DNA of 64,000 nt from an uncultured Aminicenantes bacterium (GTDB lineage Bacteria > Acidobacteriota > Aminicenantia > UBA2199), in contig CBDAFS010000062.1 of assembly GCA_965195285.1 (NCBI GenBank), forward strand, positions 32,001 through 96,000, given 5' to 3'. The translations under genes were made by a program, and so were the position numbers. The notes beneath the pieces are model-generated. The model was given only the letters and a program-made list of their open reading frames with translations. It had not been told where the DNA came from and made no database searches. Positions 45,448 to 55,704 of the stretch are shown piece by piece (the first letter of the stretch is position 1; each line of letters opens with the position of its first letter).

Positions 45448-45470
45448 TCAAGAAAGCAACGACCGTCCCC
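45448..45470 (+). repeat. Island motif copy
   Basis: TCAAGAAAGCAACGACCGTCCCC, 19/23 identical to the copy at 51172. Confidence 0.75.
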
Positions 45471-45599
45471 AATCCTTTCTAAAACCAATTCAAGAAAATA
45501 TTTTTTATCTTTTGAAGATTTAAATATCTTCTCCCCATTTATGCCCCTGTTCATGACATGGTGAAAGGCATCTTTGTAAGTAATTCTTGGGTGACGCAT
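45471..45599 (-). pseudogene. N-terminal fragment of REP-associated/Y1 HUH tyrosine transposase (RAYT)
   Basis: MRHPRITYKDAFHHVMNRGINGEKIF...DKKYFLEL; homology stops after ~40 codons, before the HUH motif. Confidence 0.85.
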
Positions 45600-45618: not shown

Positions 45619-45643
45619 TGTCATACTGTCAAGCAACGTCCCC
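45619..45643 (+). repeat. Island motif copy containing a minus-strand TTGACA
   Basis: TGTCATACTGTCAAGCAACGTCCCC; first 21 nt are 19/21 identical to 46400-46420. Confidence 0.75.
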
Positions 45644-45721
45644 ATTTCATTGGGTGGGTAAAACCAGAAAAATAAGGGTGGGTGCAAACGTGCAAATAGG
45701 CCTTTTTTTCTTTTAATCAAA

Positions 45722-46299: not shown

Positions 46300-46357
46300 T
46301 TTCCAGGTTTCGATGCACCTCCCCCAATCCATTTTTTTTATAATGCCAAAATGAAAG
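46300..46357 (+). repeat. ~56-bp direct repeat, right of the lipoprotein gene
   Basis: CAGGTTTCGATGCACC...ATTTTTTTTATAATGCCAAAATGAAAG. Confidence 0.8.
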
Positions 46358-46572: not shown

Positions 46573-49500
46573 ATGATCAATAGAAGGAAAATTATTGAAA
46601 CCTTTGAACAAATATTTCTTTTAGAGCTGCATCATTTAAAAAATCGACCTGATCTAATATTTCAACAGTTGTATAATGAGCTGCAGTGGAAAGAAAGAGA
46701 AATTAAGGAAATTGTAGAAAAAGCAAGGAAAACATATTTACATTCCGGAAGATCATTTCTCCACCAGTACAGAAAACCCAAAGTTGAGGTAAATCATCTG
46801 ATGATGACCTTGGCAGGGCATAAAGATGCGGTGAATGCTTGTGTCTATTCCCCAAATGGGAAACACATTGTTTCAGCTAGCAGTGATAATACCTTAAAGA
46901 TCTGGGACAGTGAGAATGGCCAGGAAATTGCCAGACTAACAGAACATACAAGTAGGATAAAAGCATGCGCCTATTCTCCTGATGGTAAATGGATTGTTTC
47001 AGCAAGTACTGATAGAACCTTGAAGTTATGGAGCGGTGAGACATTTCAAAAAGTTTTCACACTGAAGGGACATTCAGGTGTTGTACACTCTTGTGCGTTT
47101 TCTCCGGATGGGAAGAAAGTGGTATCAGCAAGTAATGATTATATGTTAAAACTGTGGGAAACAGAGACAGGAGAGGAGCTAGCAACTCTGAAAGGGCATT
47201 CAAATTTAGTAATATCCTGTGCATTTTCACCGAATGGAAAAAGGATTGTGTCAGCTAGTTTTGATAGAACATTAAGAATCTGGGACGCTGAGACTGCCCA
47301 AGAATTAACGATATTATTAAAAAATACCAGATTGATATTTTCCTGTGCTTTTTCCCCTGATGGGAAAAAGATTATCTCATCATGTGATGATTCCACTTTA
47401 ATAGTTATAGATATTAAGACCGGCCAAACATTAGACGTATTAATCGGACATAATAAATTATCTGGTGCTGCTATATCTATGTCAGATACTGGTGGTGACC
47501 CATCTTTTTCCGGATGGATATTATCTTGTTCATATTCTCCTGATGGGAAAAGAATTGTTTCAGCTGGTTATGATGGAACCTTAAAAACCTGGGACGCTGA
47601 GACTGGCCAAGAATTAATGACTTTTAAAGAACATATAGGCCAGATAAATTTCTGTTCATACTCCCCTGATGGGAAAAGGATTATCTCAGCTGGTGCTGAT
47701 AACACAGTAAGGGTATGGGATTGTGAAATCTATAAAGAGAGAGAAATCAGGAGAGAATTAGCTATACTTAAAGGTCATAACTCGACTGTTAAGTCATGTG
47801 TTTATTCCCCTGATGGAAAAAGAATTATATCTGCAAGTCGTGATAATACCTTAAAAATCTGGGATAGTAAGACAGGGGAGGAGACACATACCCTAACTGG
47901 GCATACTGATTCTGTATGCTTCTGTTCATGGTCTCCAGATGGAAGAAGAATTATATTTGCAAGTGAAGATAAAACTTTGAAGATATGGGATGCAGAAACA
48001 GTAAAAGAAATTACCATACTAACAGGACACACAGGTGGGATAATAGCATGCGCCTATTCTCCTGATGGGAGAAGAATTATATTTGCATGTGAAGATACAA
48101 CCTTAAAAATCTGGGATAGTGCAACAGGGAAGAAGACACATACCCTAACTGGGCATACTGATTCTGTATGGTTCTGTTCATGGTCTCCTGATGGGAAAAG
48201 AATTGTATCTGCAAGTGAAGATAAAACGTTAAAGATATGGGATGCAGAAACAGGAAAGGAAATTACTACACTAACAGGACACACCGGTGGGATAATAGCA
48301 TGCGCCTATTCCCCTGATGGGAAAAGAATTGTTTCTGGAAGTAGAGATCTAGCCTTGAAGGTCTGGGATAGTGAGATTTTTATGGATCAAGCGACATTAA
48401 AAGGCCACATTGGAATGATAACTTCTTGCAATTTTTCACCAGATGGAAGAAGAATTATATCTTCAAGTACCGATAAAACCTTAAGGGTCTGGGATATTGA
48501 GAATTTTAAAGAATTGCTAACCTTAAGAGGACATGTTGATACAGTAACCTCTTGCAACTTTTCACCAGATGGAAGAAGAATTATATCTTCAAGTGACGAT
48601 AAAACCATAAGGATCTGGGATAATAAGAATGGTGAAGATTTAGTAATACCAATAGGACATACTGATGTGGTAGATGTCTGGGCTTATTCCCCAAATGGGA
48701 AACAAATTACATCTGGAAGTTTTGATAAAACCTTAAAGATCTGGGATGTAGATAGGGGAGAAATATTTTCTACACTAATTGGACATAATGATAAAATAAC
48801 GGCCTGTGCTTATTCCCCGGATGGGAAAAAAATAATCTCGGGTAGTCGTGATAATACTTTAAAAATTTGGGATAGTGAGACAGGGCGGGAAATCCATACC
48901 CTAACTGGGCATAGAGGTGAGGTGAATGCTTGTGTCTATTCCCCAAATGGGAAACACATTGTTTCAACTAGCGATGATAATAACTTAAAGATCTGGGATG
49001 CAGAAACAGGAAAGGAAATTACTACACTAACAGGACACACCGGTGGGATAATAGCATGCGCCTATTCTCCTGATGGGAGAAGAATTGTATCTGCAAGTCA
49101 AGATCAAACCTTAAAAATCTGGGATAGTAAGACTTTTGAGGAATTGCAAACATTAAGAGGTCATTTTGATGGAGTATACTCTTGTGATTTTTCCCCTGAT
49201 GGGAAAAAAATTATCTCAACAAGTGCTGATAAAACCATAAAAATATGGGATATTGAGAGAGGTAATGAGTTACTTACATTAATAGGATATTGGTTCCATA
49301 AAAATTCACTTTATGGGAAAAGAATGATTTCCGGACTTTCAGATGGCAGTGTTAATGATAAATTAAAGGTTTTGGATACAGAGACAGGAAGAGAGATTGT
49401 CACTCTTATAGGACATTCTGGACTTATATTAGATTGTGCTTGGTCTCCGGATGGGAAAAGAATTGTTTCTGGAAGTAGAGACCTAACCTTGAAGGTCTGG

Positions 49501-49635
49501 GACAGTGAAATAGGAGAGGAATTATTTATTTTTTATACTAGATATTATGTAAACAAATGCAATTTTTCTCCTGATGGAAAATCAATTGTAGCTGGGGATT
49601 ATAATGGGAATGTATATTTTCTTAAATTAGTATGA
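46573..49635 (+). CDS. WD40 repeat protein (~22 repeats) with short N-terminal helical segment
   Basis: 42-aa repeats GHxxxVxxCxYSPDGKRIxSxSxDxTLKIWD; no signal peptide and no P-loop. Confidence 0.95.
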   Translation: MINRRKIIETFEQIFLLELHHLKNRPDLIFQQLYNELQWKEREIKEIVEKARKTYLHSGRSFLHQYRKPKVEVNHLMMTLAGHKDAVNACVYSPNGKHIVSASSDNTLKIWDSENGQEIARLTEHTSRIKACAYSPDGKWIVSASTDRTLKLWSGETFQKVFTLKGHSGVVHSCAFSPDGKKVVSASNDYMLKLWETETGEELATLKGHSNLVISCAFSPNGKRIVSASFDRTLRIWDAETAQELTILLKNTRLIFSCAFSPDGKKIISSCDDSTLIVIDIKTGQTLDVLIGHNKLSGAAISMSDTGGDPSFSGWILSCSYSPDGKRIVSAGYDGTLKTWDAETGQELMTFKEHIGQINFCSYSPDGKRIISAGADNTVRVWDCEIYKEREIRRELAILKGHNSTVKSCVYSPDGKRIISASRDNTLKIWDSKTGEETHTLTGHTDSVCFCSWSPDGRRIIFASEDKTLKIWDAETVKEITILTGHTGGIIACAYSPDGRRIIFACEDTTLKIWDSATGKKTHTLTGHTDSVWFCSWSPDGKRIVSASEDKTLKIWDAETGKEITTLTGHTGGIIACAYSPDGKRIVSGSRDLALKVWDSEIFMDQATLKGHIGMITSCNFSPDGRRIISSSTDKTLRVWDIENFKELLTLRGHVDTVTSCNFSPDGRRIISSSDDKTIRIWDNKNGEDLVIPIGHTDVVDVWAYSPNGKQITSGSFDKTLKIWDVDRGEIFSTLIGHNDKITACAYSPDGKKIISGSRDNTLKIWDSETGREIHTLTGHRGEVNACVYSPNGKHIVSTSDDNNLKIWDAETGKEITTLTGHTGGIIACAYSPDGRRIVSASQDQTLKIWDSKTFEELQTLRGHFDGVYSCDFSPDGKKIISTSADKTIKIWDIERGNELLTLIGYWFHKNSLYGKRMISGLSDGSVNDKLKVLDTETGREIVTLIGHSGLILDCAWSPDGKRIVSGSRDLTLKVWDSEIGEELFIFYTRYYVNKCNFSPDGKSIVAGDYNGNVYFLKLV

Positions 49636-51171: not shown

Positions 51172-51194
51172 TCAAGAATTCAAGCACCGTCCCC
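51172..51194 (+). repeat. Island motif copy at the right island boundary
   Basis: TCAAGAATTCAAGCACCGTCCCC followed by CGTCTT micro-duplications. Confidence 0.75.
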
Positions 51195-53391: not shown

Positions 53392-54192
53392 CTAATAAAC
53401 CAGCATGCTCAAATAGGCCACCACCTGGTTGTAATCACCGCTGACCTTACCGGAATGGGTATACTCCACGATTTCAGTATGAGTGGCCCCGGCCTCCAGG
53501 GCAGCTTTGAGCATGACGACCGTTGCAGACATGCCACACATGCTGATACGCCTCTCTACAACCACCTCATATAATCCCTCCGGGTCCAGGGCGGATATTT
53601 TTTCAATGGCCCGGTGATCCTCTTTTTCAGCGGTTCCGGCTTCGATATAATGACTCATATCGGTTGAGGCAACCATTAAAACCGAAGGTTGAGTTTTCAG
53701 GCAATCGCCAATTTCCCTTCCCGCCTGAATCAATCTATCTATCTCCAGGGAGGCAACCATGATGGGTAGGATCCGGGCACGGGGATTCAGGTACTGAATG
53801 AAGGGGACCTGAACTTCCAGGGAATGCTCTTCCAGGCCAGCCTGACTATCAATGGTAAAAACCTCACTGTTTTCGACCAACCTTGATCTCAAATCGTCAT
53901 CAATCTCACAATCCCCCAGGGGCGTATTCCAGTGGTCATGGCCATCAATGATTAAAGGCTCTCCAAGGCCCCTGTGATTGACACCGATAATGATCACCGA
54001 ATCGGGGATGTCAACCAGGCCAAATCCCTTTCCCGCACAACTCCCGGAATACACATATCCGGCATGGGGTGAAACCAGACCCACTACTTTTTTCCTGGTA
54101 TCTGAGAATTGAATGAGCTGATCGAGCTCAGCCCGGAGCGCTTGCCCATCACCCGGATAAAATATCCCGGCCACAGACGCTTTTCTGATCAT
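53392..54192 (-). CDS. amrB: AmmeMemoRadiSam system protein B (MEMO1 family)
   Basis: RKASVAGIFYP, PHAGYVYSG, EHSLEVQVPF, ASTDMSHY, SMCG. Confidence 0.95.
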   Translation of the reverse strand: MIRKASVAGIFYPGDGQALRAELDQLIQFSDTRKKVVGLVSPHAGYVYSGSCAGKGFGLVDIPDSVIIIGVNHRGLGEPLIIDGHDHWNTPLGDCEIDDDLRSRLVENSEVFTIDSQAGLEEHSLEVQVPFIQYLNPRARILPIMVASLEIDRLIQAGREIGDCLKTQPSVLMVASTDMSHYIEAGTAEKEDHRAIEKISALDPEGLYEVVVERRISMCGMSATVVMLKAALEAGATHTEIVEYTHSGKVSGDYNQVVAYLSMLVY

Positions 54193-54209
54193 TTTTTCTT
54201 CTCCACAGG

Positions 54210-54238
54210 AGAGATATCACGTCTTCAATCAAATGTCA
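54210..54238 (-). promoter_or_regulatory. Candidate sigma70 promoter of amrB
   Basis: TTGACA-17 bp-TATCTC with a TGn extension. Confidence 0.45.
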
Positions 54239-54285
54239 AAACATTTTCCGGTCTGTTATACTTTCATCCATCAATCTATTATATT

Positions 54286-54423
54286 GGTAATGGCGTACGG
54301 TATAAGGAGTGACGAATATTTAAGGAGGAGGTGACCCTAAATATTCCGGTTACTCTTTTTTTTTGTTGTTGACCTTTGACGAAGAAAAACCTTATACCGT
54401 ACACCATGTACCCCACACCTTCT
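54286..54423 (+). ncRNA. Unknown structured RNA (three-way junction, Shine-Dalgarno sequence in loop, possible pseudoknot)
   Basis: P1 54286-54307/54390-54412, P2 54308-54325/54335-54354, P3 54356-54368/54377-54389; strand inferred from G-U pairs. Confidence 0.55.
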
Positions 54424-55704
54424 TTATTTACCATAAACCATTTTCCTGTTCCTGACCACCACTTCTCCGGACTTAATCACCGTATGAACAGGATTGATAC
54501 CCAGGTGATAGGCCAGGTAACTGTAATCCGGAATGTCCATTAAAAGCACATCCATTTTTTTTCCCAGGGCGATCGAACCCGCCTGCTGATGCCGATCAAT
54601 GGCATAGGCCGCATTGATGGTAACCGTATTGATCGCCTCTTCCACGGTTAAACCCAGCAGATATATTCCCAGATGAAAAATGAACAATTGAGAAGAAACC
54701 ATTGAACTGCCGGGATTAAAATCAGTTCCCAGGGCTACAATACCGTTTTTATCAATAATTTCCCTGACCGGGGCATACTGATCCAGTTTCAGAAAAAAGG
54801 ACACACCCGGCAATATAATACAGGAAGTATCCGAGGCTGAAATGGCCTCTATCTCTTCCCCGGTCATGGCAATCAAGTGTTCTGCGGATACCGCCTTTTT
54901 ATTGACTGCTAACAATGCCGCATTGTTGGAAGTGAATTCATCTCCATGTATTTTTATTTTAAAATTGTGTTCCAGTGCCCGGTCAATATAATATTCGGCT
55001 TCATCATAAGAGAAATAACCGTTCTCACAAAAAATATCCACAAACTCTGCCAGATTACGTTCCTTTACCCGGGGCATGACCTTCTCCACCAGAAATTCCA
55101 GGTATTCCCTGTTCTTTCCCCGGTATTCCTCCGGAATTTCATGTGCACCCAAAAAAGTGGGGACAATGTCGATCGGATGAAATGAATCCAGGGCTTCCAG
55201 TACTTCCAGTTGCTTTATTTCCGTGGTTTCATCCAGGCCATATCCACTCTTGGCCTCAACCGTGGTGGTGCCGGAAGCCAGGATCTGATCCAGTCTTTTT
55301 TCACATTGAACCAGTAGATCATCATAGGAGATTTCCCTGGTTCTTCGAACCGTACCCTTGATGCCACCGCCTTTTTCAGCAATCTCCTGATAACTGACAC
55401 CCTGAAGCTTGAGGCGGAACTCATCCTGGCGGGTACCGGCAAAGGGCAGGTGGGTATGGGGATCCACCAAGCCCGGGAAAGCCACGAATTCAGCCCCGTC
55501 AATAACCACTGCATCCGGAGATAGTTTACAATTCTTCTCAAAATCTGACCGGTGCCCGATAAATGAAATAAATTCCCCTGATGCACCAAGCCAGACATCA
55601 TGGGAAATCTTGATAGAATTCAAATCATTCCCCCTGACCACAGTATTTCGGGCCGGGTTAACCAGTGTTTTGATATTTTTTACCAGACTATTGACTTCAA
55701 TCAT
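54424..55704 (-). CDS. hutI: Imidazolonepropionase
   Basis: PGLVDPHTH, GGGIKGTV, EAKSGYGL, TFLGAH, DIFCE, ALGTDFNPGS. Confidence 0.95.
   Translation of the reverse strand: MIEVNSLVKNIKTLVNPARNTVVRGNDLNSIKISHDVWLGASGEFISFIGHRSDFEKNCKLSPDAVVIDGAEFVAFPGLVDPHTHLPFAGTRQDEFRLKLQGVSYQEIAEKGGGIKGTVRRTREISYDDLLVQCEKRLDQILASGTTTVEAKSGYGLDETTEIKQLEVLEALDSFHPIDIVPTFLGAHEIPEEYRGKNREYLEFLVEKVMPRVKERNLAEFVDIFCENGYFSYDEAEYYIDRALEHNFKIKIHGDEFTSNNAALLAVNKKAVSAEHLIAMTGEEIEAISASDTSCIILPGVSFFLKLDQYAPVREIIDKNGIVALGTDFNPGSSMVSSQLFIFHLGIYLLGLTVEEAINTVTINAAYAIDRHQQAGSIALGKKMDVLLMDIPDYSYLAYHLGINPVHTVIKSGEVVVRNRKMVYGK

Follow-up and report, generated by a model that had tools for sequence, protein, structure and literature searches.

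A conserved palindromic element between hutI and amrB in an Aminicenantes genus, with a candidate role as an intercistronic RNA hairpin

The hutI-amrB gap and its contents

The window, by which we mean the whole 64,000-nt stretch of contig that was analyzed, carries ftsA and ftsZ directly upstream of hutI on the same strand, followed by amrB as the next gene downstream. The hutI-amrB gap spans positions 54193 to 54423 and is flanked on both sides by minus-strand genes; no regulator gene adjoins the hutI-amrB locus. The hutI side of the gap is occupied by a 134-nt element, located at the end of the ftsA-ftsZ-hutI string. The genes and features are as follows.

54424 to 55704, minus strand: hutI, coding for imidazolonepropionase (TIGR01224, 400 bits against a cut-off of 298)
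53392 to 54192, minus strand: amrB, coding for a Memo-like protein, AmmeMemoRadiSam system protein B (PF01875 and TIGR04336)
54286 to 54419, minus strand: the conserved element, 134 nt, with 92 of 134 columns invariant in an alignment of five homologues
54413 to 54419, minus strand: unpaired unit GGTGTGG, invariant in all five sequences and accounting for most of the plus-strand 'anti-SD tail' CCCCACACC
54390 to 54412, minus strand: 5' arm of the outer stem P1, G/U-rich, with the 7-mer-like units GGTACAT, GGTGTAC, and GGTATAA; pairs with 54286 to 54307
54286 to 54307, minus strand: 3' arm of P1, whose last bases together with the next base read TTACCA, a -35-like box in three of the five homologues
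54375 to 54385, minus strand: unpaired motif TCTTCGTCAAA (TTTGACGAAGA on the plus strand), identical at 11 of 11 positions across the five sequences
54314 to 54346, minus strand: upper P2, a 12-bp hairpin with a 9-nt loop (54326 to 54334) reading YYACCUCCU on the minus strand and AGGAGGURR on the plus strand
54308 to 54313 with 54349 to 54354, no strand assigned: lower P2, variable and spacer-like, with partial pairing
54356 to 54389, plus strand: T-run and P3, confined to this genus (all four genus genomes; absent from the metagenome copy, L037)
54233 to 54285, both strands: AT-rich segment beside the element, with promoter-like hexamers on both strands

In the window, P1 pairs 54286-54307 with 54390-54412, P2 pairs 54308-54325 with 54335-54354 around the loop AGGAGGTGA (54326-54334), and P3, with four G-U pairs, joins 54356-54368 to 54377-54389; nine T's are present at 54356-54364, and the plus strand ends in the tail CACCTTCT at 54416-54423. 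The features listed in the preliminary description, which had been made from the sequence letters, are all present. The plus strand of this sequence does fold into the three-way junction proposed there (minimum free energy of -51.7 kcal/mol, z of -6.6, 0 of 200 shuffles as good), and the minus-strand fold is nearly as good (-48.7 kcal/mol, z of -6.0). The 11-nt motif at 54375-54385 is unique within the window at zero mismatches.

The plus-strand loop displays a Shine-Dalgarno (SD) sequence that, as previously noted, is not followed by a start codon at normal spacing: there is no ATG, GTG, or TTG 5 to 10 nt past GGAGG on the plus strand, and the sole GTG overlaps it. The likeness of the opposite strand to the 3' end of 16S rRNA is also borne out; the genome's own 16S rRNA ends in ...GGATCACCTCCTTA, and the loop complement has TCACCTCCT in common with it. 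A more extensive mimic, or a remnant of the 16S 3' domain on the minus strand, was rejected, with 26 of 200 shuffles aligning as well or better, and a resemblance to 16S at GTAACCG is seen in only two of the five sequences. Separately, 54359-54373 matches exactly, over 15 nt, the UP/-35 region that precedes the genome's own 16S rRNA gene by ∼170 nt (L055:1315-1329); the identity has a score of 30, where the best of 200 shuffles reached 27, and the sequence is of low complexity.

The gap was described as holding no recognizable SRP RNA, 6S RNA, tmRNA, or riboswitch, and this agrees with Rfam, for which the window has no matches at gathering scores and two chance-level matches only at E values up to 10. 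The shape does not fit 6S RNA, and the Rfam 6S model has no match in the genome, although the poor sensitivity of that model (it detects only 5 of 14 controls) makes this weak evidence. Among the papers listed by a literature search, none combined Aminicenantes with an RNA motif. Taken with the conservation described below, these data support the view that this is an unannotated structured element outside any Rfam family and under purifying selection.

The window contains other repeats. Approximately 20 tandem copies of a 126-nt (42-codon) unit with 60 to 88% identity are present at 46800-49600, probably within a gene for a long repeat protein, and a recurrent ACCGTCCCC-type motif is found at 45462-45478, 45635-45651, 46317-46333, and 51186-51194.

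Distribution, insertion, and conservation

Five homologues of the element are available, four in genomes of this genus and one on a metagenome contig (L037), and all lie between hutI and amrB. In a BLAST search of 60 related genomes, matches are confined to the other three genus members (97%, 89%, and 85% identity), in the same gene context. Covariance models R1 and R2, built from this genus only, were run over 151 class genomes and 72 family genomes, and full-length matches (140 to 162 bits; 159 to 162 in the family run) occur only in the same four genomes. Exact-pattern scans of genome_contigs (185,579 species according to its description, with one genome per species) return only the three related genus genomes; one further match, from a Spirochaete, corresponds to an ordinary ribosome-binding site preceding an ATG. 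A metagenome scan adds a single homologue, L037, which is more distant, with an amrB product 58% identical at the protein level and hutI on the other side. The element is present as a single copy in its own genome (3.28 Mb, 94.9% complete), in which no dispersed copies were found, and it has no convincing similarity to the GGGG-headed transposon ends of that genome.

Outside the genus, hutI and amrB are nearly contiguous. In all five genomes compared (four from the sister genus g15 and one from g4), the hutI stop codon and the amrB start codon either overlap by 4 nt (ATGA) or are 12 to 19 nt apart, these short junctions hold only a ribosome-binding site, and the gene downstream of hutI is an amrB orthologue with 55% identity. 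The element is thus an insertion and the 230-nt spacer is derived. There is no recognizable target-site duplication at the insertion junction; as regards the other hallmarks of MITEs, inverted arms are present and there is one copy. The element starts 4, 4, 4, 4, and 5 nt from the hutI stop codon in the five homologues, within the ∼50-bp proximity to stop codons that characterizes the heptamer pairs discussed below. Read-through of the hutI stop codon was considered and rejected, since the spacer, 4 nt long in four homologues but 5 nt in the other, leaves no conserved frame.

The element is far more conserved than its flanks. Between G001 and G000, the nucleotide identity is 70% in hutI and 63% in amrB and falls to 41 to 47% at third codon positions, and yet 119 of the 134 element bases are retained, as are 62 of the 64 nt nearest to hutI. 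The comparison of G002 with G000 is similar, with 77% identity in hutI, 75% in amrB, and 54 to 58% at third positions, set against 114 of 134 element bases and 61 of 64. Even the second codon positions of the neighboring genes (80 to 93% identical) are less conserved than this 64-nt segment. The metagenome copy keeps 102 of 134 bases, although its amrB protein is only 58% identical. The 92 invariant columns across five sequences comprise 59 of 68 paired and 33 of 66 unpaired positions, 30 to 32 of the 33 upper P2 bases are identical across species, and free variation is confined to lower P2 and the linker.

The arms of the window element can be read as three to five degenerate 7-mer units of a GGTNTAM-like form, with GG or CC every 7 nt, and the unpaired GGTGTGG unit extends this GG spacing beyond the P1 arm (positions 86390 to 86419 of contig C62, corresponding to 54390-54419 of the window). 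Taken alone, this periodicity is at background level and not significant: sets of five GG's in 7-nt phase number 12 in the genome, where the 5-nt and 8-nt phases give 10 and 11, and TRF finds no repeat in the element. A kinship is suggested by the sister genus, g15. Weak, arm-only matches to the R1 model are present in 17 of 27 g15 genomes and in 1 of 120 class genomes outside both genera (G128), and matches of this type to the R2 model are present in 13 of 28 g15 genomes and in none of 40 genomes of the family's other 16 genera. In alignments, the g15 matches are palindromes with arms of tandem 7-mers of the GGYNNAC or GGTNTAA type, and a 16-nt run of the arm at 54390-54412 is identical to part of one g15 array (G088:C53:2323-2345). 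A loose three-unit pattern has 71 to 519 matches per g15 genome, compared to 6 to 141 for a reversed control, and 4 matches in the window's genome. The G128 covariance match (L021:456-560 and L021:1501-1605), from another family, is an unrelated palindrome of ∼105 nt with two near-identical copies 1 kb apart, picked up by the model because of its long stem only.

The g15 genomes G088, G069, G017, G113, and G101 each carry dozens to hundreds of palindromes with arms of tandem GGYNNAC-type 7-mers (e.g., G088:C95:5548-5659; L022 to L036); these tend to have the outer flanks GAACTCGG ... CCGAGTTC, with a unit that varies by locus and species. Across an orthologous spacer between convergent g15 genes (L056 to L063), the 7- or 8-mer units differ by species, or a plain GC-rich terminator is present, with flanking genes 75 to 95% identical. 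One g15 element (L022:1501-1598, minus strand) has a core in which AAGGAG is followed after 6 nt by the ATG of a possible mini-ORF, a 17-codon frame that extends into the 7-mer arm.

At each of 17 locations inspected, the g15 copies lie near a flanking open reading frame, usually at the 3' end of a gene or in the spacer of a convergent pair. Their turnover is fast: at one orthologous locus with flanks 90 to 95% identical, the element is unalignable, is built from another unit, or is replaced by a plain terminator, whereas the window element keeps 85 to 97% identity across its genus. The preliminary description had named dispersed, MITE-like copies as evidence against its reading; these are absent from this genome, although the arms resemble those of the abundant g15 palindromes. 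With arms that can be read as GGTNTAM-like 7-mers, as in the sister-genus palindromes, the element most likely began as a heptamer-armed palindrome that was then fixed and co-opted.

The conserved fold and its strand

Four components are common to all five homologues: the 22-bp outer stem, the 12-bp upper P2 with its 9-nt loop, the 11-nt unpaired motif, and the unpaired 7-nt unit beside the hutI stop codon. The metagenome copy lacks P3 and the T-run, and it folds poorly on the plus strand (z of -2.7) and well on the minus strand (z of -5.6); of the 28 scored cells of lower P2, only 18 pair on the plus strand and 16 on the minus strand. As predicted from this alignment, the conserved fold is a hairpin within a hairpin and not a three-way junction, which is a property of the window sequence that does not extend to L037. 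Similarly, the 8-bp pairing proposed between the 3' tail and the loop is there in the window, but the tail past CACC differs in every lineage (TTCT, GTCT, ATTC, and GTTT), so that the full pairing is specific to the species pair; only four of the eight pairs are conserved, and the switch built on them is not.

The assignment of the strand also changes. Five plus-strand G-U pairs had been taken to favor the plus strand, and the count is correct for the window sequence, but these lie in the helices that are not conserved; G-U pairs in lower P2 and P3 are on the plus strand only, with 19 such cells in P3. In the 34 conserved pairs, 169 of 170 cells are standard pairs on the minus strand (109 of 110 in P1 and 60 of 60 in upper P2). 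These stems contain one compensatory pair, one pair broken on both strands, and six one-sided changes, all of which leave a G-U or Watson-Crick pair when the minus strand is read and an A-C mismatch when the plus strand is read. Read on the plus strand, these 34 pairs have 11 mismatched cells; three come from the C-A pair at 54294/54403, which the plus-strand structure omits, and the other eight fall within that structure, such that upper P2 has 56 of 60 standard cells (4 of 60 A-C) and P1 has A-C in 4 of 105. RNAalifold finds P1 and upper P2 on the minus strand without a supplied structure (-43.4 kcal/mol, covariation term of -1.2), and on the plus strand gives -37.8 kcal/mol with a covariation penalty of +1.8. 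By our own estimate, 6 of 7 compatible changes correspond to a p value of ∼0.007 at a one-in-three chance of keeping a pair, where the seven variable pairs come from five sequences that are all kin, two of them near-identical. The strand evidence is thus modest, and it appears to favor the minus, gene-sense strand.

Because all six one-sided stem changes fit the minus strand only, the conserved loop most likely reads ACCUCCU, which is anti-Shine-Dalgarno-like, and not AGGAGG. The suggested homologue search and covariation check thus yielded five homologues and a favorable covariation term, but for the strand opposite to the one proposed as functional. The observations of the preliminary description are partly confirmed, and its interpretation is partly supported and needs revision: of its two main proposals, an anti-SD RNA is compatible with the minus-strand reading, and an SD decoy is on the strand that these comparisons do not support.

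The helices that favor the plus strand do exist in the genus, and it is conceivable, although rather unlikely, that the functional product is a reduced plus-strand small RNA of ∼75 nt comprising a single-stranded arm, P2 displaying AGGAGG, and a U-run, and acting as an SD-like decoy or as a hutI-amrB antisense RNA. The signals at the edges of the element bear on this. On the plus strand, TTTACA, 17 nt, and TATATT (10 of 12 matches) end at the element start in G001 and G002, and the window has ATGTCA, 18 nt, and TG-TATACT within 54233-54285, with a weaker -35 at that place. P2, which on the plus strand is AU-rich with a 9-nt loop, is followed by 7 to 9 T's (U's in the RNA) in all four genus genomes and in this genus only. 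The metagenome copy has neither the promoter-like site nor the T-run, and in this sense the two co-occur, so that a short plus-strand RNA may be made in the genus. Lower P2 and P3 carry their G-U pairs on this strand only, and the loop of the RNA would match the 16S tail of this genome perfectly over 8 nt. However, the core conserved in the five homologues includes neither promoter nor T-run, upper P2 and P1 carry the A-C mismatches noted above, and the most conserved 64 nt would be 3' of the supposed terminator. The 8-bp tail-loop switch is not conserved, and no gene for CsrA, a proposed ligand, was found in the 94.9% complete genome. A plus-strand promoter on an internal TTGACC box was also considered and rejected, as no acceptable -10 follows the box.

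On the minus strand, TT(A/C)CCA, 18 nt, and TGnTAAAAT are present in G001, G002, and the metagenome copy (L011, L012, and L037) with spacer sequences that differ; the -35 is formed by the end of the element, and the site is absent from the window and its close relative. Promoter-like matches in AT-rich DNA are near chance, with 0.5 to 1.8 expected per region. A terminator scan finds no terminators at the element, and with no U-tract after P1 on the minus strand the element is not a canonical intrinsic terminator. In the metagenome contig, a GC-rich terminator-like hairpin with a U-rich tail (L037:1104-1130, minus strand) lies between the element and the amrB ribosome-binding site, and it has no counterpart in the genus.

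Interpretation and comparison with known systems

The reading that we tentatively prefer is of a single-copy, lineage-restricted palindromic insertion of ∼134 nt that has been co-opted and whose sense transcript would form one hairpin nested inside another; our best guess for its function is that of a co-opted intercistronic RNA hairpin. The insertion would have separated hutI, the last gene of the ftsA-ftsZ-hutI string, from amrB, and the fold would form in minus-strand RNA, that is, in the hutI 3' untranslated region or intercistronic transcript, presenting a loop like the 3' tail of 16S rRNA. Starting 11 to 12 nt past the hutI stop codon, the hairpin may block 3' exonucleases or read-through, which would uncouple amrB from the upstream transcript, and in three of five homologues the last bases of the element may supply the -35-like box of a new amrB promoter. 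One point counts against a purely structural hairpin, which would have no need for so many invariant columns (92 of 134, including 33 unpaired ones). The invariance of the loop and of the single-stranded motifs implies an additional, putative sequence-specific partner, which could be an SD-bearing RNA or a protein.

A more speculative version, which we consider unlikely, is that a selfish heptamer-armed palindrome has been domesticated into a regulatory RNA acting via the SD/anti-SD code, in one of two forms. The first would be a sense ACCUCCU mimic of the 16S tail that titrates SD-bearing mRNAs or a protein that recognizes the 16S tail; in the second, that of the genus, the opposite strand would also yield a short SD-loop RNA that binds 30S subunits, giving a sense/antisense pair. 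Heptamer-armed palindromes are widespread, unexplained, and normally too fast-evolving for comparative study, and the window copy, being frozen with a defined core, is a rare case for a direct test of a function gained by such an element. If the SD/anti-SD loop is functional, it would exemplify an RNA of repeat origin that acts on translation initiation, in a phylum that lacks a cultured model.

It is improbable, in our view, that selection acts chiefly on the DNA, with the arms and inner palindrome serving as regulator binding sites, or as a cruciform, upstream of an amrB promoter. In the stems the sequence itself, and not pairing alone, is indeed preserved (59 of 68 paired columns are invariant), as it is in the fully invariant 7-mer unit and 11-nt motif, both unpaired, and a promoter-like site lies directly downstream with the element end as its -35 box. 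A DNA site does not, however, predict that all one-sided changes should be wobble-compatible on one strand; moreover, no regulator gene lies beside the locus, there is no candidate protein, and the arms are 82 bp apart around an inner palindrome with a 9-bp centre. Less probable still is a minus-strand cis-regulatory leader of amrB, riboswitch-like or protein binding, with a downstream hairpin as its expression platform. The invariant junction and loop nucleotides are typical of aptamers, and the terminator-like hairpin of the metagenome copy precedes the amrB ribosome-binding site, but P1, 22 bp long and almost perfect, does not resemble a switching helix, the homologues are confined to one genus and a single contig, and the predicted promoter is downstream of the element, which would put the element outside the amrB leader.

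An inert, functionless relic of a mobile palindromic repeat is disfavored and seems a shade less probable again: although the arms resemble those of an abundant repeat family and the insertion separates formerly adjoining genes, g15 elements become unalignable at an orthologous locus with flanks 90 to 95% identical, and this element remains 85 to 89% identical where flanking synonymous sites are saturated. We regard as most improbable of all a small protein, from a minus-strand frame of 42 to 51 codons or a plus-strand 13-codon frame past the SD; both frames are open in the four genus genomes, but a 7-nt length difference shifts and breaks the minus-strand frame in the metagenome copy, so that the conserved P2 falls in a different frame there, the GTG of the plus-strand frame is replaced by GTA in G002 and lies only 0 to 2 nt from the SD, and the conservation has no third-position pattern.

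The preferred reading, a co-opted intercistronic hairpin, can be set beside several known systems. HutP binds UAG triplets spaced by 4 nt, and a HutP-type site was considered given the proximity of hutI and the 7-nt spacing; it was rejected, as PF09021 has no match and the triplets are GGU, not UAG. CsrB and RsmZ are sponges for CsrA with GGA motifs in many hairpin loops, and a CsrA sponge was among the earlier proposals. The plus-strand hairpin loop of the element has a GGA motif, but it is one hairpin, not many, and CsrA (PF02599) has no match in the 94.9% complete genome, such that this proposal is not sustained. The RsaE and RoxS small RNAs have C-rich loops that pair with SD sequences, and the minus strand of the element likewise displays a CCUCC-containing loop on a stable hairpin; unlike RsaE and RoxS, it has no promoter or terminator defining a small RNA, and it belongs to another phylum.

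REP/BIME, REPIN, and intercistronic stabilizer hairpins are extragenic palindromes at gene 3' ends, with roles in mRNA 3'-end protection and the discoordinate expression of operons. The window element is also a palindrome at a gene 3' end inside an operon, and the same role is proposed for it; it differs in having no GTAG or CGTC head and no identified partner transposase, and in being single copy and much longer, with a 22-bp stem and a cargo hairpin. A second type of comparison is with heptamer repeats. The TAACTGA repeats of the Beggiatoaceae, for which MacGregor (2015; PMC4679880) proposes a post-transcriptional binding role, are similarly intergenic 7-mer arrays, but they are direct repeats just upstream of start codons, whereas the window arms are inverted and lie past a stop codon. 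According to Rehm et al. (2015; PMC4692102), the GGGAATC heptamers of Xanthomonas are G-rich, intergenic, and of unknown function; they lie within 50 bp of stop codons and frequently form convergent pairs. The window element shares with these pairs the G-rich convergent arms, which can be read as 7-mer units, the position <50 bp from a stop codon, the co-oriented genes, and the stem-loop potential; it differs from them in that it is single copy with degenerate units and is strongly conserved around a specific core. In our comparison, these inverted heptamer pairs appear to be the closest published relatives of the element's type of arm.
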